A stretch of 64,000 bases of DNA, from positions 459,474 through 523,473 of the forward strand of contig NW_027192202.1 of the NCBI RefSeq assembly GCF_041956535.1, read 5' to 3'. The stretch is from Calcarisporiella thermophila CBS 279.70 (lineage: Eukaryota; Fungi; Calcarisporiellomycota). Below, piece after piece: positions 4,084 through 53,220 of the stretch (position 1 is the stretch's first letter; every line of letters begins with the position of its first letter). A program made the position numbers and the translations under genes. The notes beneath the pieces are model-generated. The model ran no database searches. It was not told the DNA's origin and saw only the letters and a list, made by a program, of their open reading frames with translations.

Positions 4084-6028
4084 TTAAAGAATATAGTCCT
4101 TCAGCTTCCTTAGTCGTTCAATGGCGAGATCCAGAGTCGCGTCATCTTTACAAAAGGCAAATCGTGCAAAATTTTCTCCCAATTGCCTATTCTCTACCGA
4201 GTAGAATTCTGTTGGAGGGATCGCAACTACACCAATTTCCTTTGCCAGCCAGTAACAAGTGCGGAAGTCGGCCGCACGATTCAACACACTAGCGGGGTAG
4301 GGATAGCCAGAATCGGCTGAGGGAACGCGCAAGCGAGAGGTATTTGCAAGGATAAAATAAGAGCCGTCGGGCACAGTGCACGGAAGGCCCAATTCCTTGA
4401 AGACTCCAAGAAGTTTATCACGTTTGGAGGTATACGACTCGATGAGATCACGGAAGTATGGCGCTGTCTGGCAGTGTTCGAGTCCGGCTGCGATAGCCTC
4501 TTGCATTGGAGAGTTGACACAGAAGACAATCCGGGTGTGGGCACTGAGGGGGGGCTCAATGAGATTGCTTGGGCCAATAAGCCAACCAACTCGCCAGCCC
4601 GTGACACCAAACTACAGAAAAAGACGAGAGATGATGAGTACTTGGGGGCAATAAATATAGGGATCAGCCTTGACATACAGTTTTTCCTCCGCTCCCAACC
4701 GTGATTGTTCGCTCCCACATACCGGGAAGGGTAGCAATGCGGACATGTTCGCTTGGAGAGAAGAAGAGGCGATCGTACTGTATTACAAAAAGGGTTACTT
4801 GAATTGCTCCTTTAGACTGCATTCTCGAGAAAGCACTTACCACTTCGTCACTAATCACCAATAAGTTGTGCTGAATTGCCAGGTTTGACAACTGCAACAG
4901 CTCCTCGCGAGAGAACACTTTGCCAACCGGGTTATGGGGAGTATTAAGAACAATTATACGCGTTCTCGGCGAAATTTTCGAACGCAATTCGTCCATATCG
5001 ATTTTCCACTCTCCCGACGAAACAAATTCATTAGAGCTTTTGGCGGGAGGACGGATAGGCAAATAAACGGGAACACCCCCATTCATTGATATATTTGGCT
5101 ATTATATGTAAACCGTCGTTAGTTGATCGAGAAAAATTGAAATAGAACGCTGGCGATACAAACCACATATTGATCAAAGAAAGGTTCCATAATGATAACC
5201 TCGTCTCCTTGATTCAAATAAGCAGTGAAAATACTTAACATCGCTAATCGTAAAAACTTTTCATTAAAAGATCCCCCCCAAAAAAACCCTGGAAAATGCA
5301 TTTCAATATCACCTTCGTTAGCGCCTGCGCCTACCATGATTTCAGTGTCCGGATTAATTTGTCGGTCAAAAAGCGGGCTGTAAGAATTGGCTATAGCCTG
5401 ATAAACGAATTAGCTTTATGGGTTACTAAGCATGTTTGTAGATATTATCTCACCTTTCTTAGTCGCGGATTTCCTCTTGGATGACTATAAAATGATAGAA
5501 AAAAAAAGACACGTATGAGCCCAAGCTCTACAAATGAAATATTTCAATAATAAAAACCTATATTGATTGCACTCGTTTCTTATCAAAGCCTTCTGAGCAG
5601 CTTCAATAATGAAATCGGGCGGCGCGAAACTATGTGGAGAACATATAGGTTTATAGCGTTAATAACGTAGTCGCATTTTAAATGAATCATTTCAGTTTCC
5701 ATCGAAGCTCACTTCATAAATCCTTGGCCCAAGTTGATGGCCTTCGTTTCAGCAGCCAATGGGGTAAAGATAGACCACACTATAGCAGGAAAAAAAAGTC
5801 GATTTGATAAATTGACATTAATAAAGTGAACTGATGATGAACACCGAATAAGAATAAATCACCATCTTGCTCGAAATGGGCAACTTTCTCGGAGGGTGCA
5901 AACGGCGAATCTCGCTTTACTTGGGAGTTAGTAGAACTCATTCTCACAGTAGCTAGCAATGCGCCGCGATTCGCCGATAAATAAGTTCGTTGAAAGAATG
6001 GGAGAAATCGCCTCAAATGCCCTGACAT
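4084..6028 (-). CDS. BNA3: Kynurenine/glutamine aminotransferase (class I PLP, Bna3/KAT-like), multi-exon
   Basis: Exons give AINLGQGFM, GDEVIIMEPFFDQY, IVLNTPHNPVGKVFS, VISDEVYDRL, TITVGSGGKT, VPDGSYFILAN and FARFAFCKDDATL. Confidence 0.9.
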
Positions 6029-8166
6029 TCGAAAAAAAAAAGTTCTAGCTGTGGGGGAAACAGTTATATACAAAGTGAGATAACATGATTTTACTTGTGG
6101 CACAGAGCTATTGTGCGATTTCCATTTACTCTGACGGAAGCCCCTTAACTCTCACATCAGCAAAAGGGATTTGTTGGAGGCTCTGACTGTGTGAGTTCGG
6201 CTGTTATGGTTGGGGGAAAGTTTAGCTGGTAAAAAAATTGGGATAATATTGCAGTCATCCTTTAATTTTTGGTCATTAAAAAACTCTTTTTACCACTTAA
6301 AGGTGGTTAACAATGAAAATGATAATGAGAAAGAGCTTCTATCTACAAAATCAACCCACTTATTTAAAAGAAAACTCATAAAATCTAAATGCATTAACAC
6401 ATTTGCATCGAACTAATTGAAGAGAGAGCCCTCAAAAAGTCCAAGTAATAGGTAAAAGAGAAAGGGCTAAAGAGTTAAAATGCATTTCAGACTATTGCGT
6501 GCAGGAATAACTACCCCAGTTCTATCGTAGACATGAAAAGAGGCCAACAATATGCATCGCATTTTAGTCTCTGTGGCTAGAGTAGACGCTCTAACGGTTG
6601 AGAAGGAGAGCCGTCAGTGCGCTAAAGAATTACCACAGGACTCGAACTTGTAGCAACATTCGGGAAGCGAATTTCGTTTAATACATCTCCGCTAAAATGC
6701 TGTGTTTCATCTGGTAAATTTTTTCCTATAGGTCTAATTTATTATGAAAAATGCTGGAAATTCGGAAACCCTTAATTTAATTAACAAGCTAAAGAGTAAA
6801 CCAATTAAATGGCCAATTCTCCTGGGGTTTGGACTCGAGAAGATAATCAGTGCTCAAAAGCTTTGTCCTGCCGGGTTAATTATCATAATGGAAGTGCGGG
6901 CTGACTTATTTGGTTAGGACCCTCTCGGAAACTGGTCTTTGGTGTGGAAAAGAGGATAGAGGGGAATGAGCGATTAAAACAAATAATGGTGGAAAGGTAG
7001 CTTATCAGCACAAGCAGATCGTATAGATTCGAGATTCGCTCTTGGCTCATACTTGGCAGTTTGGATTCTCGTATTTACTCTACACCTCTTCTGTAGAGAA
7101 AAGGCTACATTTTTATCCACGCGAAGCTATCCTCTTAGTGTAATCAATGAAGATGTTTCACTTGGCGTTTATCTAAACCCTACCATGGCCATAATACGTA
7201 ACAAAGCTTTACAAATAACCACAAATATTTTAAATCTTACATATTTTTCGTCTTTTATCGGCTGAATGGGGAAGTAAAACGGAACATAATTTTACCTGAA
7301 AAATCATTCAGCCTATCTACCCATCGCTTTACAAAATTCAATATACTGAATATCATTACATACGAAATAGCTTTAAAATTTTGATGCTGAGAATCAGTAT
7401 TGCCGCCTAGTTGAAGCATTCTAGAACTGGGTCGTAGTGTCCTTAAGATCATAAACCTCATTGTCTTGAATTTTACCACTTATCACATTATTTTACAAAA
7501 CGGCTCTGGTGTTCCCTAAGTGTCTTTATTTTTTTTTTGCCACCATACTTGAAGATGATTTGTGTTTGCCCTCGAGATAACGGGCTGGTATCTTCTAACC
7601 ATCTATTGGAATACAATTGGGAGAGATATTCGAAGTTGCTGTATAATTTGAGAAGTATCCCAAGCCACTCGGCTCTTATTTCGTTTTATTTATAAAATTT
7701 TATATTTAAATTGGTCCTATTTTAGGGATTTTTAGCTCGGGTTTCACACAAAATTTCAAAAAGGAAGTGGGATGCAAGCTTTATGTAGAACTGAGGTCGA
7801 ACGAGCGTTAATAAATATCTTGCTAGTAGAAATAAATTAATCATGCCCAAAAGCTCCGCTTTTTCGCATAATATATTCTTCCTTGGCCAGTGCCTTTTCT
7901 TCAACGCAAAATCACAGTAGGACAAGGTGTCTGACCCACCTGCATGGAACCCAAGTTCTGGGCAGGGAGCAAAATTTCGTGAACCTCAAGATTGACTTTG
8001 AGGAGCATGATATAAAACCGAATTTTGCACTTTTTCTGTTCTTTCCCATTTTTCTCTCTTTCATTCACCCCTCCCCGCTTGCATAACTCATTCCTTTGTT
8101 ATAATAATATTGCAATCCTTCCTTTCCTTTTTTTCATTTAGCATATCTCTCTAACCATATCCTAAG

Positions 8167-10166
8167 ATGGTGAAACTCTTCACCCTCGCTGCTGCACTCA
8201 CGCTTGTAGCCTCTGCGGCAGCTATTCCCCTGGAGTCGGCCGAAGAGAATGCCCCGCATCTCGAGGAACGCACATTGGGGCTCCTCGCTGGAAGTTTGGC
8301 TCCTCCGGCAGCATCGGGCGGTTGCTGCCCCCGTGTATCTAAGCGTACCCTCGGTTTATTAGCTGGTTTGAGTGGAGCGGGCCAGTGCTGTGAATTTAGG
8401 GGCTTCAAGACGAAACGCACCCTTGGACTGCTTGCTGGCTTGCTTGGCAAGAAGTGCGTACCATGCAGAAACAACTGCGTGCCTTGCAATGCAAACGGCA
8501 ACACCAACGTCAACAACAATAGCAACACGAACATTAATAATGTGAGTTAGACTATTTGAGGATGTATAGCTTTGACGGGAGATTAACCATTTTATTTCAT
8601 TAGAACAATAACAACAATAACAACAACAATAACAATCCAAATAACAATAACCAGGGTGGAAATGGCGGTGATAACGGAGAAGAGACCGAGGAAACGGAAG
8701 AAGAAGAGACCACCGAGGAGGAGACTGAAGAGGAGCAGAAGAAGAAGGAGAAGGAGAAGCAAGCGACAGAAAAGGAGGAGACCGAAGAAGAGACCGGAAA
8801 ACCGGGTAAACCTGAGACACCTGAGAAGCCTGAGAAGCCTGAGAAGCCCGAGAAGCCCGAGAAGCCTGAGAAGCCCGAGAAGCCCGAGAAGCCCGAGAAG
8901 CCTGAGAAACCTGAAAAGCCCGAGAAGCCTGAGAAGCCCGAGACTCCAGAAAAACCAGGAAAGCCTGGTACTGAAACCGGCAAGACTGAGCAAAACGGCA
9001 AAACAGAGCAAACTGGTAAAACAGAGACCGAAAAACCTGAAAAGCCCGAGAAGCCCGAGAAGCCTGAAAAGCCTGAGAAGCCAGGACAGCCTAATACACC
9101 CCCTCCCACGACCACGAACATCACCAACAACAACTCCACCACTATTACTAACAGCGGAGGCAACACATCTACAACTACAAATACTACCGGAAGCAACAAC
9201 TCAAGCTCAAGCTCAAGCAGCAGTTCGTCCAGCAGTTCTGGTAGCAATGGGCAAAACGGACAGAACGGACAGAATGGACAGAATGGTCAGAACGGGCAGA
9301 ATGGACAGAATGGACAGAATGGTCAAAACGGGCAGAACGGCCAAAACGGTCAAAACGGGCAGAATGGTCAGAACGGACAAAATGGATCCTCTGGAACTAA
9401 TGGTACTAATGGAAATGGCAGCACCCCCGGAAGCAATGGTACTGGGCCAGGAGGCAATGGAACTGGGAACGGAGGTAATGGTACTGGAAACGGGGGTAAT
9501 GGAACTGGACAAGGCGGCAATGGAACTGGACAGGGTGGTAATGGACAGGGTGGTAACGGCCAAGGCGGTAATGGTCAAGGAGGCGCTGGAGGTAAAGGTG
9601 AAGCTACCGGAGCTGGTCAAGGAGGTGCAGGAGGCACTGCGACTGTCGGTGGCCAGGGTAACACGACCATTAATGTTACTACCAACATCCCTCCGGGTAC
9701 CGTCAACGTCGGTCCAGGTGGCAATGGAAATACTGGGATGAACACCAATACCAACGAAAATAGCAACAATAACAATAACAACAATAGCAACAACAATAAC
9801 AATAACAATAACAAGAACGATAACGATGATGATGACGACGAGGATGACGAGGATGACGATGACGATTATGAGGATGAAGGCGAAGATGATGAGTATGAAG
9901 GAGAGGACGATGATGAAGGTGATGACGAAGACGACGAAGACGACGAAGACGATGAGGGTGATGAATATGAGAAGGATGAATCGGAAGAAGGAAACAAGTC
10001 TGAATCCGATGGCTCTGAGGATGACTACGAGGACTGCGAAGAGGAAGAGGAGAGTAGCAGTGAAAAGTCAGAGGGCAGCAGCGGTAAGTCAGAGGGTAGT
10101 GGCTCAGACTATGGAAAGGGAAGTGAAGGTGGCGACGATGATTGTGGTTGCGAAGATGAGGATTAG
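8167..10166 (+). CDS. Secreted Kex2-processed repeat precursor fused to a low-complexity/collagen-like scaffold (~645 aa, 2 exons: 8167-8541 and 8604-10166)
   Basis: Signal peptide MVKLFTLAAALTLVASAAA, then three (E/K)R|TLGLLAG modules. A phase-0 GTGAGT...TTAG intron (8542-8603) joins an uninterrupted frame that runs into the 9738-10166 ORF and ends at TAG 10164-10166. Confidence 0.85.
8820..8936 (+). repeat. Coding tandem repeat (CCY GAR AAR)x13 = (Pro-Glu-Lys)13; a second block of ~5 units near 9036-9080
   Basis: 9-nt units read directly in the exon-2 frame. Confidence 0.95.
9240..9410 (+). repeat. Coding Gly-X-Y repeat: 19 consecutive triplets including (Gly-Gln-Asn)15
   Basis: Reads GSN (GQN)15 GSS GTN GTN, with mixed synonymous codons across units. 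Confidence 0.95.
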
Positions 10167-10513: not shown

Positions 10514-13500
10514 ATGCCACCTAAAAGAAGAACGCGAAAAATCCGTGATGATTCTTCAGAAGAAGAAGTCGATGAGCGTGCCAAAATTAAAAAGAGGGAT
10601 ACTTCACCAGAGCCTGCTTTAAATGAATCTCATAAAGAGGAGAATCATCCTGGGGAAACGCAAGACAAGCAAGAGCAGAAAGAAGTACATCATGATGAAT
10701 CGCTTACAAAACCAGCGGATACCCCAACGCAAGATGGCCAATCTACTTCTGAAACTAATGGAAACTTGAATAGAGCATCCTCTAGTATATCTGAACCTCA
10801 AAAAGAAGAAGCTAGGAAACCTCGACTTGTAATCACCAAGATGGTGCTCATTAATTTTAAATCCTACGCCGGAAAACAGGAGATTGGTCCCTTTCATAAG
10901 GTACATAGTGTGAATTAATTTGTGTTTAATAGGCGCTAAATCACGTTTTGTACTTTATGTATTTTTTCTCTAATAGTCTTTCAGCTCAGGTATATTTTAA
11001 ATTATTGCTATGATATATAGATTATTGATTCGATTTCTATCTAATAGTGGTTGGCCCGAATGGTTCCGGAAAATCCAATGTTATTGATGCACTACTTTTT
11101 GTATTCGGATATAGAGCTAGTAAAATGCGACAGGGTAAACTTTCCGAACTTATTCACTCATCTGCTAAACACAAAAATCTTGATATGTGTGGGGTCGAGG
11201 TGCATTTCCAAGAAATATATGATCTTGTAAGTAAATGAGTGATTATTTTTTGAATTTTTTTTCTCAACGAGTGTTGATGCTAATCCTTTTATTCGCTGTT
11301 TGGTAGCCCGGCCCTGATGCATACGAAGTCGTCCCTGATTCTCAATTGATCATATGTCGCCAGGCATACAGAAACAATACCAGCAAATATTTCATTAATA
11401 ATATGAATAGTAATTTCACCACAGTGACGAATCTTCTCCGTGAGCGCGGGATTGATTTGGATCATAAACGATTTCTCATTCTACAGGTAATATACATTCA
11501 TATCATGTTTAATCCTCAGTAAAAGATTATAATACATGTTTACTCTTCATCTTAGGGAGAAGTTGAATCTATATCACAAATGAAACCTAAAGCCCGAGAT
11601 GAGCATGACGAAGGTTTGCTGGAATATCTCGAGGATATTATTGGAACTTCGAAATATAAACAGCCGATTGAAGAAGCGAGCAAGAGTTTGGAAACACTAA
11701 ATGATGAACGTTCTGAGCGCTTGAACAGAGTGATATTCGTGGAAAAGGAGAAGTTGAGTCTTGAGGTATGTTTGGCTCTATTCGACATACATTCAAGGGA
11801 TATACATTAATTTTGTCGTTTATTTTGCCTCACTTTGTAGGCAAAGAAATCTGAAGCTGAAGCATATTTACGCACTGAAAATGAACTCATACGCAAGAAA
11901 TCAATGTTATACCAGCTACATATCTATGAATGCCACAACAATATTGATATTTCAAAGAAGACAGTGGTATTTGAAACTCAATTCTGGAATTGAAAGTTTC
12001 TTTTGCCCATCTGAACTCTTTATTTCATAACTAGGACGAATTAAAGCTGAAACTAGAACAAGAAACAGGAAAACAAAGTCATGTAAAGGACGAACTAAAC
12101 GAGATGGAGGAAAAATACAACAATATTGTTAATGAATATGAGGTAAGCACGATCTCAAGCTGTGGGTTTACATAGCGATATAACTCTATTTTAATTTTTA
12201 GAATCTGGGAAAAGAAACAAACGAGATAATTAAGGAGCTTTCCAAATTTGAACGCTTGGATGTTCAGCTACAAGAAAAGAGGAAGCATTTGAAAGCAAAG
12301 CAAAAGAAGCTGGAGAAATCCCTACAAAGTGTTGGTATTTTTCTATGGCATGCTGAGCTATGACACTGTTTTACCGTTGTTGTTTTCTTAGGATAAACAC
12401 CAACGTTCAGAAAACCAATCCTGGATCAAGAATTACGAGAGTGAACTGGTGAAACAGCGTGGCCGAGTGGTCGAGTTAGAAGCTGCGCTCGAAAAAGAAG
12501 AGAGAGAGCTGGAATTAATCCGAGATAGTTTGAAAGGTATATGTTTGCCGCGGACCTTTCTGTCCATTTATGTGGTTGCTAATGTTAATCCCACAAACAG
12601 AGAAAACCGCAGAGTTTTCTGCTCAGATTGAAGAAAAGCAACGCGAATTAGCTCCATGGAAAGAGAAATTGAATTCGAAACAGTCGCAAATTGATGTCGC
12701 TCAGTCTGAGCTCGATATTCTAAAGGAGAAAGCACTATCAGGTCAGAAGGCGGTAGAGAGTGCTGAGAAAGAAATAGTGGAAATTAGGGACGAGCGGGAA
12801 GCAAAAGTATTATATATCTAAAAACTATCTTGATGTGGCAGGTATATTCATGCAACATTGTTGATCCAATAGGGATTGGAAATAGTTGAAGCGAAAAAGA
12901 ATATTGAGGCAAAACGAAAAGAAATCAAGCATCTTGAAAAAGTGCTAAAGGTAATTTTATTTTGCATCTGAGTTATTAGAAGCTCGAATTGATCTTTTGG
13001 TTCTATCTCCTAGCAAATGCAACAGCAAGACGCTGAACTACGCACTACAGTTTACACTGCTCGTCAAAAAGCAGAGGATGCTAAAGCATCGCTGCAAAAT
13101 TCCCGATCGCGAGGGGCGGTTTTGCAAAACCTATTGCGTCTGCGAGATTCCGGTAGAATCAAGGGAATATATGTACGTATAACGAGAACTATTGGATCGT
13201 TAGCAAGTCCTCCATCACATCTTTAACATAATTTTTTATTCTCAGGGCCGATTAGGCGAGCTGGGTGTTATTGACGACAAGTACGATGTTGCTATTTCCA
13301 CTGCGTGCCCTGCTTTGGACAACATAGTAGTCGAGTCGGTAGAGGCTGGTCAAGCCTGCATCGAGTATTTACGCAAGAACAATCTTGGTCGGGCCGTATT
13401 TATCCTTTTAAATCAATTACCTAAACAAGATCTTTCGAAGATTCCTACACCAGACAATGTTCCGCGTCTGTTCGACCTAGTTACTCCCAAGGAACCTAAG

Positions 13501-15609
13501 TTTGCTCCTGCGTTCTATAGTGTGCTAAAAAATACTCTCGTTGCACGGGACCTTAAGCATGCGAATCAAATTGCTTTCGGCAATAAGCAGCGCTGGCGCG
13601 TGGTCACTCTTGACGGCCAACTAATTGACAAATCTGGAACTATGTCAGGCGGTGGCACCCGAGTGATGCGTGGCTCCATGAGTTCCAAATTTGTCGAAAC
13701 AGAAGCCACAGAAGAAGTCATTTCTCAGTTGGAAAAGGAGCGAGAGGCTCGTGAGAATGAGTGGACCACTTTTCAGCGAAATCAGCGACAGTACGAGTCG
13801 CAGTTGGAGGCGCTAGCGTCGGAAATACCGCAATTAGAGACCAATCTGTCCAAACTGGAGATGGACTTTAAGGCATGTGAAGAGAAATTGGAGGATGCGC
13901 ATAAAAGGGCTAAGGATCTGAAGTAAATACATGCTAAATGACTTTTCTTTGCCCATTGAGTGCCTAATCGCTGTATTTTATTCTGCACTACATAGACAGC
14001 AGAACAAGCCAGACGAAGGAGATAAGATGAGGGTGAAGCATCTTGAAAGAGAGATCGAGAAACTCAAACAGGAGCTTGCAAAGCTTCGAGTTACTCCTCT
14101 CCAGATTGAAGAGCAGATCCGTCAGCTTCAGGACAAAATCCTCCAAATTGGTGGGGTTCGTTTGCGCAGTCAACAGGCCACCGTTGATGCTGTTCGTGAA
14201 CAAATAGAGACAGTGAGTGGGAATATCACAAAGACTCAAGTAGCCAAAAGCAAAGCAGAAAAGGATCTTGCCAAAGCCGAAGCAAATGTGCTGAAGGTCG
14301 AAAAAGAGTTGGAAGAAATGGAGGTTCAGGCAACAGAGCTCGACAAAGATATCGAGGAGAAGTCTAAGGCGGCAAACCGTGTACGAGAGCAGGTAGAGCA
14401 ATCTAAAGAGGCAAGTCTTATTTTGGTTGAGATTTTCAAGTCATATATCCGACGCCTGATCACATTTGACTATGTTCAATAGCTCATGGAGGAGAAAAAA
14501 GAGGTGCTTGAAGAGCTTAAAAAAGAACTTGACGAGCGCACTGAAATTATTAACCAAATCCGCACAGCTGAAGTGGAGATCAAGAATGAGTTGGAAGACC
14601 ATGAGCGCAATCTCGCCGAAAACCAGCGAAAAGCAGCACACTGGAAAGAGCTGTGGTCGAAGCTTTCATTACAGTCCATTGGGTAAATTGTATAATGATA
14701 GAGCCTTAAAGATGAATCGTGGCTAACCTAAATCTTCAGCGACACTGATTCTACAGAGCTTGAGCTGCACGAATTCACACCGGATGAATTGAGGGATATG
14801 GAAGGAAATAAGCAAGCCCTTAAAGGAGAAATTGCAATGTTAGAAGGTGAGTGATCCCCAGCAATCATACTAGTCTTAATATTCTCTAATGCTTCAACCC
14901 GGTCAATTTCAGCCAAAATCCAAAATGCAAAACCCAATCTCTCCGTTCTCGAGGAATATCGCCGCCGCGAAGAGGAGTATCAACAGCGCGCACAGGATCT
15001 CGAGGCGATCACAATGCAACGTGACTCTGCCAAGCGGATCTATGACGAGTATCGCAAACGGCGTTTGGATGAGTTCATGCAGGGCTTCACGATTATTTCA
15101 CAAAAGCTCAAGGAAATGTACCAGCTCATCACTCTTGGAGGCAATGCAGAGCTTGAGCTAGTCGACAGTTTGGACCCGTTCTCCGAGGGAATTATATTCA
15201 GTGTGATGCCACCAAAAAAGAGCTGGAAGCAGATCTCAAACCTCTCGGGAGGCGAAAAGGTAGGAGCTTGAAAGCCCTTTTTGTTCGTGAGGATGACTTC
15301 AGTCTAACTTGTGGTATTCCTTTGTAGACGCTGAGTTCGCTTGCATTGGTGTTTGCACTACACCACTTCAAGCCCACCCCATTGTATGTCATGGACGAGA
15401 TCGATGCCGCGTTGGATTTTCGCAATGTGTCGATTGTTGCTAATTACATAAAGGAGCGAACCCGTAACGCGCAATTCATTATTATCAGCTTGAGGAACAA
15501 CATGTTTGAGTTGGCGGACCGTCTCGTTGGAATCTACAAGACGGATGGGTGTACCAAATCGGTGGCGATTAACCCTTCACGAATTACCATCCCAACTGTG
15601 GAGTCATGA
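10514..15609 (+). CDS. SMC4: Condensin subunit SMC4 (Cut3), multi-exon
   Basis: NFKSYAG..IGPFHK, Walker [13 protein letters not shown], hinge region [20 protein letters not shown], signature LSGGEKTLSSLAL and Walker [12 protein letters not shown]. Confidence 0.97.
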
Positions 15610-31869: not shown

Positions 31870-34002
31870 TTATGCTGCAGCCGGACAGTGCGGGTAATAG
31901 CTCACTGCAAATGCATCCATGCATTCCTTCTCGTCGACAATTACGTTCAGTCCATTCGAAAGACACGCCCGAGTCAAAAGACGGCGTAGTCTCTCGTGGC
32001 TTGAGCGGCAACCACCAGTCGCCGCACGCTGGAACCAGAACATGGCTTCTTCGATATTAACGGCACAGCCAACCCCGCGCTCAAGGCAGTCAGCAAGGTG
32101 GTACTGGGCAGGAAGATGGTCTTGCTCTGCAGCTTTGCGGAAGTATTGCACAGCAAGCGGCAGATCCTGCTGAACACCCAAGCCAAGTTGGTAGTGACGT
32201 GCGAGCTTGTCTAAAGCACGCGCGTGTCCTTGTGCGGCTGCCTTTTTGTACCACTTGACGGCAAGTTTATCGTCGCGAGGGACTCCAATACCTTGACTAT
32301 AGCAATAGCCAAGGTTGCATGCTGCCCACGGGTTAGCCTGGCGCGCACTCTTAGCGTACCAGTAGACGGCGCGCTTCGGGTCCTTCACTGTTCCGATGCC
32401 CTCCTCGTAGCAGTACTGTAAGCAAAGAATAAAAATCACCCAGTTAGTATCGACAATGACGGTCACACCTCCAAAACAGGGATACTCTACCCCAAGCGAA
32501 TTTTGTGCCAATGCATTGCCTTGCTCTGCTGCAAGCGTGAACCAGCGCACAGCCTCGACGTCGTCTTTTTCTATCCCGATAGCATTTCGGTAGCAATATC
32601 CGAGGGAGAGTTGAGCGGGGGAGTGGCCGTTGTTGGCCGACAGACGATACCAGCGTACTGCTTCCCGCTCATCACGCTCAACGCCAATTCCGTTCTGGTA
32701 GCAGTACCCGAGCGAATGATACGCGAAGATGTTTCCTCGTTCCGCGCTGCGGCGATACCACGCGACGGCTTCCTTCTCATCCCGAGGGACACCGATCGCA
32801 TTCTGGTAGCAAAAGCCGAGATTGTGCTGTGCGCGGGCGTGGCCCTGGAGGGCGGCCCGTCGGTACCAGTACACGGCACGCTCGTGGTCCCGCTCTACGC
32901 CAATGGCATTCTGGTAGCAATAGCCAAGATTGCACTCGCTCCATGGATATCCTTGCTCAGCACTCAACTTATACCATCTTGCCGCCTCAGAGGGGTTACG
33001 CTCCACTCCAATGCCATCCTCATACAAATAACCGAGCGAGTTTTGTGCGAACGCGTTCCCCAACTCTGCGCTCTTACGATACCAATGCACCGCCATTTTT
33101 ACATCACGCTCCACGCCAACTCCCTCCTCGTAGCAATATCCAAGATTATACATCGCAACACTCTCGCCTTGCTCTGCAGCGAGACGATACCACCGTAGGG
33201 CCTCGGCTTCATCCTTCTTCACGCCGAAGCCTTCGCCATAACAGTACCCGAGGATACCCTGCCCGCGGGGGTGGCCCTGCTCGGCCGCCTTTTTGTACCA
33301 CTTGAATGCTTCGCGCTCATCGCGCTCGACACCCACTCCGTCGTGGAAACATACCCCCAGCGCATACTGCGCCGCCGGGTGATTTTCAATCATGCCTGCC
33401 TCGCACAGCCAGGCCAAGGCGGACTTACCCTGCTGTCGCACCTTCTCCTGCCATTGGTCGGCCTCGACTCGGTCGATCCGCACCCCAGGCCGTCCATATT
33501 TGCGTAGAAACGCCATGCGTGCTTGGGATAGGCCGCAGCCGCCCCGGCAGGCGACGAGGTATTCCCGCTCGGCCGCCGCAAAATCGCACTCGACCCCCAG
33601 GCCAAACTCGAGGCAGAACCCGAGGATGCCGTGGGAGAGGACATGGCCCAGCTCGGCCGCCTTGCGGTAGTAGACCACTGCGAGCACCGGGTCCTGCGGA
33701 TAGGGCGCCCGCCCAAAAAGATAGGACTGGGCAATGGTGAAGAGGCGGAGGGCATCCTGTTGGCAAACCGCGGTGGTGAGCTGCACGTCCTGCGGATAGG
33801 GGAGGTTGAGGTGGAGCTGGCGGGATCGGGTGCGGGGCTGGAGGTGGGTTCGACGGCGACGCTCAACTATGGGGTGGCCCATGGGAGGCTCGAGAGACTG
33901 GCGGCTGATACGGTGCACGACCGAGAGGAGGGCCTTCTTGCCGGGGCGAAAAAAATGGGAAATACGAGAGGGGTTATTACTTGTTTGAACCATTTCACTC
34001 AT
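31870..34002 (-). CDS. Sel1-like repeat protein (~15 repeats), with one in-frame 75-nt intron at 32416-32490
   Basis: Repeated 36-aa AQxxLGYCYxxGxGVxxDxxEAxxWYxxAAEQG units. The 25-aa insertion in repeat 12 is bounded by GTAGAG...TTACAG. Confidence 0.92.
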   Translation of the reverse strand: MSEMVQTSNNPSRISHFFRPGKKALLSVVHRISRQSLEPPMGHPIVERRRRTHLQPRTRSRQLHLNLPYPQDVQLTTAVCQQDALRLFTIAQSYLFGRAPYPQDPVLAVVYYRKAAELGHVLSHGILGFCLEFGLGVECDFAAAEREYLVACRGGCGLSQARMAFLRKYGRPGVRIDRVEADQWQEKVRQQGKSALAWLCEAGMIENHPAAQYALGVCFHDGVGVERDEREAFKWYKKAAEQGHPRGQGILGYCYGEGFGVKKDEAEALRWYRLAAEQGESVAMYNLGYCYEEGVGVERDVKMAVHWYRKSAELGNAFAQNSLGYLYEDGIGVERNPSEAARWYKLSAEQGYPWSECNLGYCYQNAIGVERDHERAVYWYRRAALQGHARAQHNLGFCYQNAIGVPRDEKEAVAWYRRSAERGNIFAYHSLGYCYQNGIGVERDEREAVRWYRLSANNGHSPAQLSLGYCYRNAIGIEKDDVEAVRWFTLAAEQGNALAQNSLGVEYPCFGGVTVIVDTNWVIFILCLQYCYEEGIGTVKDPKRAVYWYAKSARQANPWAACNLGYCYSQGIGVPRDDKLAVKWYKKAAAQGHARALDKLARHYQLGLGVQQDLPLAVQYFRKAAEQDHLPAQYHLADCLERGVGCAVNIEEAMFWFQRAATGGCRSSHERLRRLLTRACLSNGLNVIVDEKECMDAFAVSYYPHCPAAA

Positions 34003-35261
34003 GAGATAAGCGGTGGGTTAGGAGAACGGAAGAAGAGAAAGAAGACTAGTGAAGTTGAACGGAAATAAGGAGTCGGAAGAGGGGAGGGGGGAAGGAGTGT
34101 AAGGGCCAAGGTGATCTAGTGTTAGACAGGGGAAGGGGGGGGAGTGTCTTTTTTTTTGTATAGTGCCTGCGGAAGAGGACGAGGTGTATATATTTGCAAC
34201 AAAAACACAACAGAAAAGAGAAAAAGGCAGAAAAAAATCAGGGGGAAAGGGGAAATAAAAGAGTGTAGCGAAGACTGAGTGGTTAAATAAAATATTGGGT
34301 TTACTCCTTGTTTTTCACCCTATTTCGGGGTGTATTTTATTGAATCATGAGCGGTGTACACCAATCGGGAAAGCGTTGGTCGAACCGCACAAGGTTTTGT
34401 TTGGAAATATTTCATTAGCAGCGAGTGCGAAAACACGGATTCTAAAATAAAAGGGTATGGCAAAATTTAAGAATTATAGCGGTTGTGTAAGATCGCAACT
34501 GAGTTGTGCAAACCCGGTTTCTGTAGGATGAAACAAATAAATTGAAGTCGACGTAGAATTCTAAGACGAAAGCATCGGCTGCAGGCAGCGAGGAACTGGC
34601 TGCCGGCTACGGCGGCTCCAGCTTTTCCCACATGAAAAGGAAAACAGTCCTGTTCTATTTTCAAGGTGGATGCATTTTTTTTTTCCGCTTTGTTCTTGGT
34701 GCCTAACTGCTGAATGGAGAGTGTTTGAGACCTGCGGCCGGTCCGAGCGTACACGCGAGTTTCATTCTAAAACCATGATGTGAAATAATAAAGCGATTAT
34801 CAAGTCAGCTTTTATAAAGTCAGAACGCTCGACGTAAGGACCTTTCCGCTCTTGTCGTCCTTTTTTCCCCCTTCGGTCAGTCATACCAATTGGAACTCTT
34901 TCACATCTGAGCCATAAAGTGACAAGCCCGCCACTAAAAACCATGACAATAGCAAGAATTGGAGTGGCTCCCTATCAGAAACATGTTTTCTATTTGAGCA
35001 ACGTGAACTATCGATGACGATGATGGTGTGTAAGTTAAAGTGAAATCATACTAAGCATAAAAGCGCCCCTCTCCCCCCCCCCTCCCCTCACGCAGAGCTT
35101 CTTAACCTCTCCGCTGCTTTATATATATTTTAGAGGAGCACAAGCAAACAAAGCCAAGCAAGAATAGATATATCTATATGTATGTATGTATTTGTATTTG
35201 TATTTTTAGGTTGTGTTTAGGGGTAAGCGTGTAAAAGTACAAACGAAACTATACAAGGTTA

Positions 35262-49396: not shown

Positions 49397-52300
49397 TCAA
49401 TTATCCGGCTCCGTTTTACCAGACGCACTCGCTGTCGCTACCGTATCACGGAACGCGCACAGCGCGGTAGCCACGGGGATCACCTTGCGCACCCGGCGGA
49501 TGAGATCATTCATTTTCTCCTGCTTCTGGGCATCGAGTCTCCTCTGTGCTAGCTTATTGCGGCGGCTCTTGGTGGGCCAAAGTAAAACGGTGCGCTCAAA
49601 GGACCACCAGCTATACACATAATCCAATATAGAACTTATCATGAGAAATGGCGAAGAAGCAGCATCGCAGAAGAAATGAATCGTACCGGAATAGCTGCAC
49701 CTTGACAAAGTCAAGCACGAACATGTAGGCCAGCGAAACTCCCATCACGGCCAGACCCCACCACCAGCCTATCGGAGCAATACCTTCTTTCTCACCAAAT
49801 ATACCATAGATGGACATGAACCTGTGGAAAGGAAAAGGAAAAGGATCAGGGGTTAAGCCAAAATGAAGACAAAGGGCCAGTGGAAAAGGACAAGTGTCCG
49901 GGAAAACTCACATCGCAAACACCTGGGTGGCCAAGATGACAATGGTGAACACCACGGAGGGAAGGTTCTGCCAGATGTATCCCGGGATGCGAGTGGAAAA
50001 GATGACAAAGTGCGGGCAGGAGGAGATATGCAAGTACATGATGGTGTGAAGCTCGTTGTCGGTCACGTGAAATGCATCCCTCGCGACGTAGAAGTGGGCG
50101 AACGACATGGCCGACAAGAGGAGTGCCAAGACCACGCTCATAAACATCAGTTGGCCGAGACGCCACTTGTCGGGGCGTGCCGAGATCTGGGTGTTGTCCC
50201 ACGCGATCACAATCGTGGCCGCATCATTGAGCACGCAGATGAGAATTAGGAGGAGAGGGGGCATCTCCCATTGCTCGATCAGCGTGATCAGAAAGAAGAA
50301 GATGAGGAAGTGGATGGTGGACGTGATACGGTAGAGGGCGTAGGATCGCATGCGTTGGAAGATGGCGCGCGAGGTCTTGATTCCGTCGACGATGGTCGAA
50401 AGCCCCGGCGCAAGCAGAACGATGTCGGCGGCTGAGCGAGCGGCATCCGTGCAGCCATGCACCGCGATGCCGACGTTGGCTTTCTTGAGCGCTGGCGCAT
50501 CGTTCACTCCGTCTCCCGTCATGCTCACCAACAGTCCCTTCTTTTGAAGCAGCTCCACCACACGGTACTTGTGCTCGGGAATCACCTGGGCAAAGCCATC
50601 GGCGCGCACGCAATGCTCTGTCACCTCCTCCTCCGACTTGTTTGGGTCTACGAGGTGGTTCGCATCGAGAATAACCCGCTGCATTCCAAGGCGATGCGCG
50701 ACCTCCTTGGCAATGATCAGCTGATCCCCGGTGATCATCTTCACGTTCACTCCCATTTTCTGGCACTCGACGATCGTGGCCGCCGAGTCGGGCCGGGGCG
50801 GGTCCAGCAGCGAGATCATCCCGACCAGCTCGTATTGCTCGATGTCGCCCGGGATCGTGCGTGCCACTCCAAGAGCACGCAACCCACGACGAGCGAGGGC
50901 ATTCACCGCGCGCACCGCGTCATCGTTTCCACCGACCAGCTTGATGATCACCTGAGGGGCGCCCTTGGCAACCTTGAAGACCTCCTTGGTCTCCAAATTC
51001 GCAACCGTCGCGTTCGTCATCTTGGTGACCGGGTTGAATGGCAAGAAGGAGGTGACCTTGTAGCCGGGAACTTGGTGCGGGTTGGGCCGATTCCGAAGTA
51101 TCTCGAGTTGCTCCTCGGCCGCCCTGCGCACCGCGCTCTCGATTGGATCGTTGGCCCCGGGCTCCGCAGCAAGGTAGGAGTAGAGGAGAATGTCGTCGGC
51201 CGAGAAGCCAGCGCACAAGTAGGGCTCATCGAATGTGAGCTCGTTGAGGGTCAGAGTGCCGGTCTTGTCCGAGCACAGCACCGACACCGATGCCATCTCC
51301 TCTACGGCGGTCAAACGCTTCACAATGACCTTTTTGCGCGCAAGCTGCTTCGAGCCGAACGCCATGGTGACGGACATGACGGTAGGCAGCCCGACGGGGA
51401 TGGCGGCGATGGTGAGGATGAGAATCTTCTTAATCGAGTTGAGGGGGTCGCTTGCATGCGAGATCCCGAGCAGATACCCGAGCAGCACCACCACCATGAT
51501 CACGGTGATCAGAATGAGGAAGTTCCCGATCTTGTTGACGATCTTCTGGAAGTGGCCTTCTTCCGTCGTGATCGCCATGAGGTTGGCCGCACGCCCGATG
51601 AAGGTCTGGCTCCCCGTCTTGGTCACCACGGCCATTTGCTGGCCCTGCTTGATGACGGACGACGAGTACACGGTGCCGCCCTTGTTCTTGGAAACGGGGA
51701 GCGATTCGCCGGTGAGGGCAGACTGGTCCACCTGCAGGTCTCCCTCGGTGGGCTCATGATTCACGCCAATGCCCAAGAGACGCGCGTCCGACGGCACGAT
51801 ATCGCCCAGTCGGAGCACAATGATGTCCCCGGGCACAAGCTCCGCAGCGTCCAGCTCAATCAGCTTCCCATCACGCCACACTTTGGATTTGAGCGCAAGG
51901 CTTTGCTTCAATGCGTCGAGAGCGCTCTCTGCCTTTGTTTCCTCGACGAACCCGATGGTCGCGTTGACAAACAGCAGGCCAAGAATAATCCCGAAATCGA
52001 TCCAGTCGCGCGCGACGGCAGCAAGGATACAGGCCACCTCGATCAAATACGCGATGGCGCCGGTGAAAAACCCAAGGAACTTAAGGAATGGGTTGGTTTT
52101 CTTCTCCGCGAGTTCATTGCGGCCAAATTTAGCGAGGCGCTCGGCTGCCTCCTCGGAGGTAAGACCCTTCGTAGGATCTGTGTGGAGCAGCTCCTCGAGT
52201 TCAGGCGAGATTTCATCCTCATGTTCATGGTGCTCGACATGTTCGAACTCTACTCCGCCCTCTTTCTTCTCGCTCTCTTGCGGCTCCTTTTCATCCTGCT

Positions 52301-52421
52301 TGCTATCCACTTTCGAGCGGGTGTCGGAGGAATTCGGGCTTGTGGGAGTCACCTCGACCGTGTCGGTGGAGGATTCCTCAATTATACTGTCATGAGTGTG
52401 CTTTTCGTTACTAGCGGGCAT
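49397..52421 (-). CDS. PMA1: Plasma-membrane H+-ATPase (P3A), 3 exons
   Basis: DQSALTGES, AAIPVGLP, CSDKTGTLT, KGAPQVI, MITGD, TGDGVNDAPALKKA. Introns at ~49824-49911 and ~49612-49685. Confidence 0.97.
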
Positions 52422-53220
52422 TTCCAGGGGATATATTCCGTTGAGAGGAGGGGATTGATACCAAAAAGAATGGCGCAAGTGTCAATGCCTGCTCGAAGAA
52501 TGAAGAAGAGATCTAGGGCACGGAAAGGTGTCTAAGGCAGGAATTAAATGAGAAAACCAGAAAACCAGAAAAACGAAGTCAGATTCCCTGAAGTAAGAAG
52601 GATGAATTTAGTTTGTTGAAAGGAGATTTCATAAACGTTTTTCAGGACACTACTACTTTTTTAGCGAGTAACTTTATCACAGAGGTACAAAAAAATTACT
52701 CAATATGGGGCTGTTCGCACAGGGGCATTTAATATTAAGCGGGGGGAGAGAAGGAGTTATATTCGAAATAGGAAAAAAAAATAAAAGGAGAAATAAAAGG
52801 AGAAATAGTAAGAAGAAAAAAAAGAAATGCGGGGTATATAGAAAGCCCTTTATATCCGTAGTAGTTGAGAGGAACAGAAATGAAGATAACCAACTACTCC
52901 ACACCAAGTGTGGCGTCGGCTGAACTTTTTTATTCATTAATCTCCTTATGCCAAAATTTTCATATATTGGGTTTGGCCAATAAGACAATATTAAGGTCTT
53001 GGCAGAATTTATGGTTGATCGATATACCACTAGGTTTAGGTGGAGTGCGCGATTTTTCATGGTGTTGTAATAAATTGTTTTTATTTTTTTTATGTTCCGT
53101 CAGCGTATTATCTGGCACTAAGCTGTTTTATTCCATCCGAATGCCAAGAGTAAACTAAAACAATGATATGTGTAGTGGGAAAAAAAATATAGACGGTTTG
53201 ACAATAATGTATGCTTAACA

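Follow-up and report, generated by a model that had tools for sequence, protein, structure and literature searches.

A candidate Kex2-matured surface-coat protein with three identical peptide heads and a collagen-like scaffold in Calcarisporiella thermophila

An important question is whether a gene that places the same hydrophobic heptapeptide three times behind predicted Kex2 cleavage sites, and then continues into a long acidic tail, serves to release free peptides or to build a surface structure. The question is raised by a plus-strand locus of Calcarisporiella thermophila CBS 279.70 (assembly GCF_041956535.1, contig NW_027192202.1), which lies in a stretch of 64,000 nucleotides (nt; positions 459,474 to 523,473) that was analysed as a whole and is referred to below as the window. 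The fungus is treated as a thermophilic member of the Mucoromycota in PMC11393059 and is assigned to the Calcarisporiellomycota by NCBI. A sequence-only reading of window positions 8167–8541 had proposed a new secreted peptide system consisting of three TLGLLAG-headed, cysteine-bearing modules. This stretch covers no more than exon 1 of a gene predicted to have two exons, and the gene product of 645 amino acids (aa) is, by its sequence, likely to be secreted. At a probability of roughly 0.45, we tentatively favour the interpretation that this protein is a Kex2-matured, disulfide-cross-linked surface coat, in which two peptides of 22–23 aa and an acidic, collagen-like scaffold of 561 aa would work together.

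Repeated heads, processing sites and gene structure

The translation of the three modules is exactly as first quoted, with peptides of 23 and 22 aa once the Lys-Arg (KR) pairs are removed. T36, T61 and T85 are the first residues of the heads, which directly follow an L-E-E-R sequence ending at aa 35 and the KR pairs at aa 59–60 and 83–84. Their codons, too, had been given correctly: in the three pairwise comparisons 9, 7 and 7 of the 21 nt differ, with no amino-acid change at all. Six of the seven codon columns vary, five of them with three different codons, the Ala codon being constant in all three heads. Under a neutral model the probability that all differences of a pair are synonymous is 2.6e-5 to 4.6e-4, which is a rough figure for a stretch picked post hoc. 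The longest k-mer occurring three times in aa 20–108 has eight residues (Arg plus the head), compared with at most four in all of 20,000 shuffles, and identical heads are found in frame +1 only, i.e. in one of the six frames. Aligned as DNA, the modules show no variation at codon positions 1 and 2 of the head, except position 1 of Leu codons, nor in the first Cys codon. Because the heads are identical despite their synonymous differences and the tails have diverged, the sequences argue for an old duplication of the modules and for protein-level selection on the head, in agreement with what had been concluded at first sight of the codons.

The helical hydrophobic moment is low (0.16 for peptide 1, 0.07 for peptide 2 and 0.26 for module 3), and thus the heads, with a hydrophobic run of 7–9 aa, read as short uniform hydrophobic tips and not as amphipathic lytic helices. 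Together with a net charge of +1 per peptide, this weakens the earlier suggestion of a membrane-active toxin; the ‘basic tail’ once ascribed to the peptides amounts to the same +1, i.e. it is there but weak and was overstated. Eight Cys are clustered within 55 N-terminal residues in the order CC, CC and CxxC-x3-CxxC, such that modules 1 and 2 contribute two each and module 3 contributes four. The vicinal CC that had been described for the modules is therefore found in modules 1 and 2, whereas module 3 carries the CxxC-x3-CxxC arrangement instead. In the tail of the protein, C603 (10035–10037) and C639-G-C641 (10143–10151) bring the total to 11 Cys, and because this number is odd, at least one thiol should be free or intermolecular.

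A Kex2-type site in front of each head, as originally proposed, is consistent with published subsite rules. Kex2 prefers Arg at P1, Lys at P2, where Glu ranks in the top five of the alternatives, and an aliphatic residue at P4 (PMC8528282). All three sites have Arg at P1; P2 is Lys in two of them and Glu in one, and P4 is Leu or Val in two, such that site 1 (L-E-E-R) and site 2 (V-S-K-R) match these rules and site 3 (K-T-K-R) is canonical at P2–P1 only. Just behind cleaved Kex2 sites, acidic and small residues are over-represented and basic ones under-represented (PMC2515848), and P1'–P4' at all three sites reads T-L-G-L, i.e. non-basic with Leu at P2', which fits the pattern of cleaved sites. 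With respect to the enzymes, table S1b of PMC6339444 reports KEX1 or KEX2 as missing in no Mucoromycota species. All six Arg of the protein lie in exon 1, with three of them directly preceding a head, and exon 2 contains 39 Lys and no Arg as opposed to 56% Arg among the basic residues of five control proteins from the window, a contrast that low complexity inflates. An Arg-free exon 2 fits a scaffold that would be kept uncut by Kex2, and the predicted 561-aa remainder bears out the earlier view that the third head stays on the large scaffold. At the N-terminus, rule-based prediction allows the signal peptide to be cut after aa 17, 18 or 19.

For the intron, the 1315-aa SMC4 protein encoded in the window was mapped back onto it as a control; its 17 introns (57–80 nt) carry signals of the same kinds as the predicted 62-nt intron. 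The coding frame of exon 2 is the sole stop-free one of six, and all 33 departures from the consensus of its PEK and GQN repeats concern the third codon position, which together argue that exon 2 is coding; in four heptad repeats 8 of 10 departures are at this position as well. If the intron were retained, an in-frame stop at 8548–8550 would follow after two codons, giving a product of 127 aa, 52% of which are repeat modules, as a possible small isoform. An antisense gene was rejected as a candidate: the frame sharing third positions has nine stops and non-identical heads, and its Pfam Collagen match is an artefact. Two open frames other than its own overlap exon 2. One on the plus strand (8587–9741, 384 aa) is Arg/Thr-rich and explained by repeat composition, and one on the minus strand (8603–9286, 228 aa) reads the PEK repeats as GFS triplets, which score above the Pfam Collagen cut-off and could mislead annotation.

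The scaffold and the proposed surface coat

The 561-aa scaffold has a net charge of −80 and is composed of Asn tracts, a Glu-rich segment, PEK triplets, Thr/Ser tracts, a Gly-X-Y tract, Gly/Asn/Thr repeats and an acidic tail (table 1), with N-glycosylation sequons numbering 20. The PEK repeats would probably adopt the shape of extended polyproline-II rods. The Gly-X-Y tract, which had no part in the first description, runs over 20 uninterrupted triplets and when isolated scores 40.5 bits against Pfam Collagen (PF01391, cut-off 27.2), remaining unmatched within the whole of exon 2 or within a 163-aa context; since the antisense artefact frame scores 40.1 bits, such a score shows periodicity only. 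After aa 100, no 9-residue hydropathy window exceeds 0.53, i.e. there is no transmembrane segment by hydropathy, and the last 30 aa, with a grand average of hydropathy (GRAVY) of −1.58, place the protein outside the wall proteins anchored by glycosylphosphatidylinositol (GPI), AGL proteins included. AlphaFold2 in single-sequence mode was uninformative, with a mean predicted local distance difference test (pLDDT) value of 47 for aa 20–112 and 41 for aa 338–500, and a complex prediction with three copies of the Gly-X-Y tract (score 0.02, mark 0.32) is evidence for neither side. The sole part of the Gly-rich region with a pLDDT of 65–73 is aa 478–497 (9660–9719), where Thr/Asn alternate with Ile/Val. 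This part resembles an Asn/Val/Ile stretch at aa 111–124 and may be a beta-aggregating segment.

How could heads and scaffold act together? In the coat that we propose, the intron would be spliced out and the signal peptide removed, and disulfides would be made in the endoplasmic reticulum (ER), ahead of Kex2 in the Golgi. The four Cys of modules 1 and 2 could pair with the four of module 3, or with those of adjacent molecules, and cleavage may leave the peptides attached. This order of events, absent from the first description, means that the peptides need not be free: because ER disulfides precede Kex2 and the 2+2 Cys match the four of module 3, they could remain tethered to the scaffold. 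By the action of Kex2 and Kex1, one acidic stalk would come to carry three hydrophobic GxxxG heads with free N-termini, and these heads might associate with one another or bind to hydrophobic surfaces, the wall or the interface with air. The glycosylated acidic scaffold would form a hydrated brush, in which the Gly-X-Y tract might bring three chains together and the three Cys of the tail might cross-link them. A precedent, restricted to this processing logic, is the yeast killer toxin K28, in which a disulfide made in the ER survives Kex2/Kex1 cleavage and holds the chains together (PMC5666379); K28 itself, however, is a viral A/B toxin that is folded and whose subunits are not repeated, and no toxin domain is suggested here. 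Among the functions that had been offered for the peptides, a surface coat or adhesive is the one best supported, as a predicted function.

With respect to overall layout, the nearest systems are the fungal Kex2-processed repeat proteins (KEPs; PMC6339444, PMC7329392, PMC9769878). Like these, the protein combines a signal peptide, a pro-segment and at least three similar motifs behind Kex2-type sites with no tailoring enzymes; it differs in having two KR sites and one LxxR site, in repeating exactly only the first 7 aa and in carrying an Arg-free, collagen-like scaffold of 561 aa. By the rules of Le Marquer 2019 (PMC6339444), it has a signal peptide and no transmembrane segment, as judged by the −3/−1 rule and hydropathy, and, with its three identical 7-aa heads, at least three similar motifs when these are judged without the survey's FIMO procedure. 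That survey also asks for at least four fragments and at least 15% repeat cover: cutting at KR/RR gives three fragments (39, 22 and 561 aa) and cutting at KK gives three, with the LEER site raising the number to four if counted, and the cover is 10% by whole modules or 3% by heads. Umemura 2020 (PMC7329392) accepts no fragment above 100 aa, and the terminal one here has 561 aa. The same 15% filter cost Mucor circinelloides its only KEP candidates (PMC6339444), and because the filters of both genome-wide surveys remove it, a class of this kind has gone uncatalogued. Standing alone is common among KEPs (2560 of 7878; PMC7329392).

In Rep1 of Ustilago maydis, which forms a surface layer, hydrophobic or amphipathic repeats are separated by Kex2 and a long terminal fragment comes behind them (PMC3133707, PMC4617103); Ece1 of Candida is described with the same layout. 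This precedent, and the fact that we are dealing with a single orphan gene, take much from the claim of a ‘new secreted peptide system’. The published Rep1, however, has ten peptides of 34–53 aa and a 229-aa fragment, whereas the present precursor would give two of 22–23 aa, each with a vicinal Cys pair, and an acidic scaffold of 561 aa. Held against the Rep1 type, i.e. amphipathic peptides of 34–53 aa that form surface amyloid, the two peptides are shorter and have a low hydrophobic moment. The tail of Hum3, as described, is a hydrophobin domain, which the scaffold is not. No sequence similarity to Rep1, Hum3 or Ece1 was detected.

C. thermophila is not known to have a plant host. In U. maydis, Rsp3 is a plant-defence shield that attaches to hyphae via its N-terminal domain; it shares a processed N-terminus, a Cys region, a long disordered acidic repeat tail and the lack of a GPI anchor, but as described has no repeated cleaved heads (PMC5923269). 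The MCL1-type surface coats of Metarhizium likewise have a Cys-bearing N-domain, a central glycosylated G-X-Y tract and a variable C-domain, and compared by description they differ in having 22–52 triplets and a hydrophilic N-domain (PMC6350332); with 20 triplets and a hydrophobic, Kex2-punctuated N-domain, our protein falls outside this type. The AGL proteins of Glomeromycotina are secreted, disordered and Pro/Gly-rich with zwitterionic repeats (cf. PEK), and also hard for annotation pipelines, but most of those characterized have GPI signals, and Kex2-separated Cys modules are not part of their description (PMC8786786). Taken singly, the parts are all known in kind; what our literature searches did not reveal is their combination in this lineage, i.e. 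Kex2 heads with Cys carried by a collagen-like scaffold that is free of Arg.

Homologues were looked for in sequence collections that are mostly prokaryotic or clustered. A word-index search with exon 1 retained none of 2003 candidates at 68–219 aa and none of 7993 at 220–2000 aa, with E up to 10, and tblastn confirmed none of 599 candidate stretches from a metagenome scan. Three matches returned by phmmer from 1.84 billion representatives were rejected, all being long tandem-repeat proteins with neither a signal peptide nor a TLGLL head behind Arg, and with scores summed across 5–11 stretches. A degenerate KRTLGLLAG pattern, run on 34 of the 64 parts of a collection, gave 119 loci, none with an in-frame second head and none with a nearby CC; a single-head match is thus uninformative, and the one-head pattern recommended at the outset as a key for proteome searches would yield mostly noise. 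KRTLGLLAG is found near the C-terminus of many prokaryotic open reading frames (ORFs) of about 80 aa, which look like what we take to be prevent-host-death antitoxins and are unrelated to the Calcarisporiella gene. In the ESM Atlas, a top score of 0.78 for aa 1–108 is a lead only, and exon 2 had no usable match. Pfam has no family for exon 1 or for the whole of exon 2, and one match among PDB sequences (E 1.5) was taken as chance. By exact look-up, none of the window-derived ORFs tried, the 127-aa form included, is in the protein collection, and neither the word-index search nor phmmer returned the 645-aa protein although its SMC4 neighbour is present there. Orphan status, as far as these sequence comparisons go, is provisional.

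In the literature, a text search for ‘TLGLLAG’ gave no occurrence, publications on Kex2, KEPs and Mucoromycota revealed no such protein by title or abstract start, and none on fungal Asn-rich collagen helices was found. The supplements of the KEP surveys gave no motif match, but these are accession and count tables, and peptide-sequence tables may hold similar heads. The TLGLLAG head is not among the conserved KEP motifs in section 10 of PMC6339444, and Calcarisporiella is absent from the strain table of the 2020 survey (PMC7329392).

Several points speak against a Kex2-matured coat. The first site departs from the canonical form, and P4 of the third is Lys; in vitro, Kex2 cut about two thirds of its predicted substrates and left about one third intact (PMC2515848); and the low complexity of exon 2 makes its lack of Arg appear more telling than it is. 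The Pfam score of the Gly-X-Y tract reflects nothing but Gly periodicity, and its 20 triplets are free of Pro and fewer than the 22–52 of the MCL1 type. The peptides are shorter than the Rep1 repellents (34–53 aa) and unrelated to them in sequence. None of the searches just described found a homologue by which the conservation of the sites, the Cys and the scaffold across species could be judged. Finally, six KEP knockouts in Coprinopsis are reported to have no visible phenotype, and a real KEP thus need not have an obvious structural role; KEP peptides are nevertheless detectable (PMC9769878).

Alternative explanations

The alternative to be taken most seriously, though we regard it as rather unlikely, is a classical KEP, whose two short peptides, closed by the vicinal disulfide or dimerized, would be diffusible signals or antagonists, with the scaffold as a carrier or an independent product. 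Canonical KR pairs flank peptide 2 and end peptide 1, 22–23 aa is within the commonest KEP class (9–24 aa), and a strictly kept 7-aa N-terminus is expected of a receptor-binding determinant. Yet the same head on a 561-aa scaffold would be needless for a diffusible signal, the tails differ between the peptides, a lytic action is disfavoured by net charge and hydrophobic moment, and the heads are without the X-A/X-P dipeptides of pheromone precursors. Neither a receptor nor a tailoring gene was seen in the Pfam scan of the window, which covered 186 of the 201 stop-to-stop ORFs of at least 80 aa (the remaining 15 all lie inside SMC4, and exons below 80 aa fall outside the scan).

Improbable as well, in our judgement, is an essentially intact coat of the Rsp3/MCL1 kind, which would lose its signal peptide and at most the pro-segment in addition, with the eight Cys knotting the modules into one anchor and the KR pairs shielded or incidental. 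That eight Cys in 55 residues could give four intramolecular bonds is compatible with such a structure, and structure can block good Kex2 sites (PMC2515848), just as Rsp3 is processed only near its N-terminus (PMC5923269). What argues for cleavage is that Arg is kept within the conserved repeat in all three copies, that three of the six Arg stand directly before a head, and that each site is followed by the same residue, which would make sense if the free N-terminus is important.

A more daring form of the coat, which we consider decidedly unlikely, would have Kex2 act as an end-generating and not as a releasing enzyme. Modules 1 and 2 would be knotted onto module 3 by four disulfides, three free hydrophobic N-termini would be exposed, and trimerization of the Gly-X-Y tract would generate a nine-headed protein surfactant, i.e. 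a substitute for hydrophobins or repellents in an early-diverging lineage, belonging to a class excluded by the very design of both KEP surveys.

There is only a slim chance that function resides in the 127-aa product of intron retention, i.e. a small three-module KEP, or that the locus is not expressed. The clean stop two codons into the intron would allow the short form, and the failure to retrieve the 645-aa protein by searches expected to hold an annotated copy points the same way. The 127-aa form is, however, missing from the protein collection too, the intron agrees with those of SMC4, 17 in number, in its length as well as its signals, and the exclusively third-position variation in exon 2 (33 of 33), in its sole stop-free frame, would be difficult to reconcile with a non-coding scaffold. 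Slimmer still is the chance of a secreted metal or mineral binder, with CC and CxxC thiols binding Cu, Zn or Cd, the Asp/Glu tail binding Ca and the heads only anchoring, as the CxxC-x3-CxxC and CC motifs and a tail of net −66 might suggest, since Cys passing through the ER are normally oxidized, the protein has a single His and the Pfam scan of window ORFs gave no adjacent metal-handling gene.

Other candidate classes were rejected. The Cys order of hydrophobins is C-CC-C-C-CC-C, and the 645-aa protein has CC, CC, C, C, C, C, with a negative regular-expression search and no Pfam match. Hydrophobins are also proteins of about 100 aa with a strict eight-Cys pattern (bioRxiv 10.1101/2022.08.19.504535). 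An alpha-type pheromone precursor is not compatible with T-L-G-L behind each site and no X-A/X-P (Ste13) dipeptides, a GPI wall protein not with the lack of a hydrophobic C-terminal tail, and a lytic amphipathic toxin not with so low a charge and hydrophobic moment. A precursor of the dikaritin/ustiloxin type, i.e. of a peptide that is made on the ribosome and modified after translation, was dismissed because the scanned window ORFs (186 of 201) contain no DUF3328/UstYa; this upholds the initial statement that the locus is not a dikaritin cluster, and the counts in PMC7329392 give a DUF3328 neighbour for none of 357 Mucoromycota KEPs.

Genomic neighbourhood and significance

The ‘system’ is one orphan gene amid housekeeping genes (table 1). 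Pfam matches among the scanned ORFs of the window (186 of 201) are to housekeeping families only, i.e. RabGAP, aminotransferase, SMC4, CCCH finger, PPR, Sel1, P-type ATPase, DNA ligase IV and others. Over 94% of its length, a 240-aa exon of SMC4 is 100% identical to the C. thermophila protein VTP21DRAFT_1715, with other matches at 54–67%. Among the SMC4 introns, one (14411–14482) maps as GC-AG. Elsewhere in the window, a P-type ATPase ORF of 857 aa on the minus strand (49911–52532) is overlapped by an antisense ORF of 699 aa on the plus strand, in a region with 59% GC in a background of about 44%, and an uninterrupted ORF of 715 aa on the minus strand (31873–34017) encodes 13 Sel1 repeats within an island of 58% GC.

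Table 1. Predicted features of the gene and its neighbours (window coordinates).
Feature	Position	Strand	Remarks
Putative core promoter and leader	8011..8166	+	TATAAA at 8011; pyrimidine-rich tract, 77% C+T over 8030–8166; putative function
Exon 1, 125 codons	8167..8541	+	ATG with A at −3
Predicted signal peptide, aa 1–19	8167..8223	+	Lys at 3; core GRAVY 1.83; small residues at −3/−1; rule-based
Acidic pro-segment, aa 20–35	8224..8271	+	net −4; ends L-E-E-R (P4 Leu, P2 Glu, P1 Arg)
Module 1, 23-aa peptide then KR	8272..8346	+	TLGLLAG head with GxxxG; C53-C54; net +1
Module 2, 22-aa peptide then KR	8347..8418	+	TLGLLAG head; C74-C75; net +1
Module 3, N-terminus of the 561-aa scaffold	8419..8490	+	TLGLLAG head; C97-x2-C100-x3-C104-x2-C107
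Predicted intron, 62 nt, phase 0, GT-AG	8542..8603	+	GTGAGT donor; TTAAC branch-like site at −21; TAG acceptor
Exon 2, 520 codons and stop	8604..10166	+	low-complexity scaffold; 39 Lys, 0 Arg; no KR/RR; no hydrophobic GPI tail
Glu/Thr-rich acidic segment	8679..8798	+	net −16
Zwitterionic PEK triplet repeats	8802..9080	+	19 PEK, two blocks
Gly-X-Y tract, collagen-like, without Pro	9240..9419	+	20 consecutive triplets, 15 GQN
Gly/Asn/Thr heptad and pentad repeats	9429..9580	+	many N-glycosylation sequons; from sequence
Asp/Glu tail	9819..10163	+	net −66; C603; C-terminal C639-G-C641
SMC4, housekeeping, 17 introns	10514..15609	+	outside the system
Class I/II aminotransferase, divergent neighbour	4084..6151 (extent approximate)	−	outside the system

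What would such a protein mean for its lineage? Expectations have to be tempered: orphan genes of the KEP type are nothing unusual, with a third of the catalogued KEPs standing alone, and this is one gene, with no homologue found in the collections searched and predicted properties only. The filters of both KEP surveys nevertheless have a blind spot, in that a long scaffold with a short block of Kex2 repeats does not pass them. An amphiphile with several heads tethered by disulfides, and originating from a thermophile, could also be of use as a biomaterial. For the biology of these fungi, canonical hydrophobins are reported to be lacking in four of five surveyed Mucoromycota (bioRxiv 10.1101/2022.08.19.504535), and, if true, a Kex2-matured amphiphilic coat would be a candidate for how early-diverging fungi tune surface wetting and adhesion.

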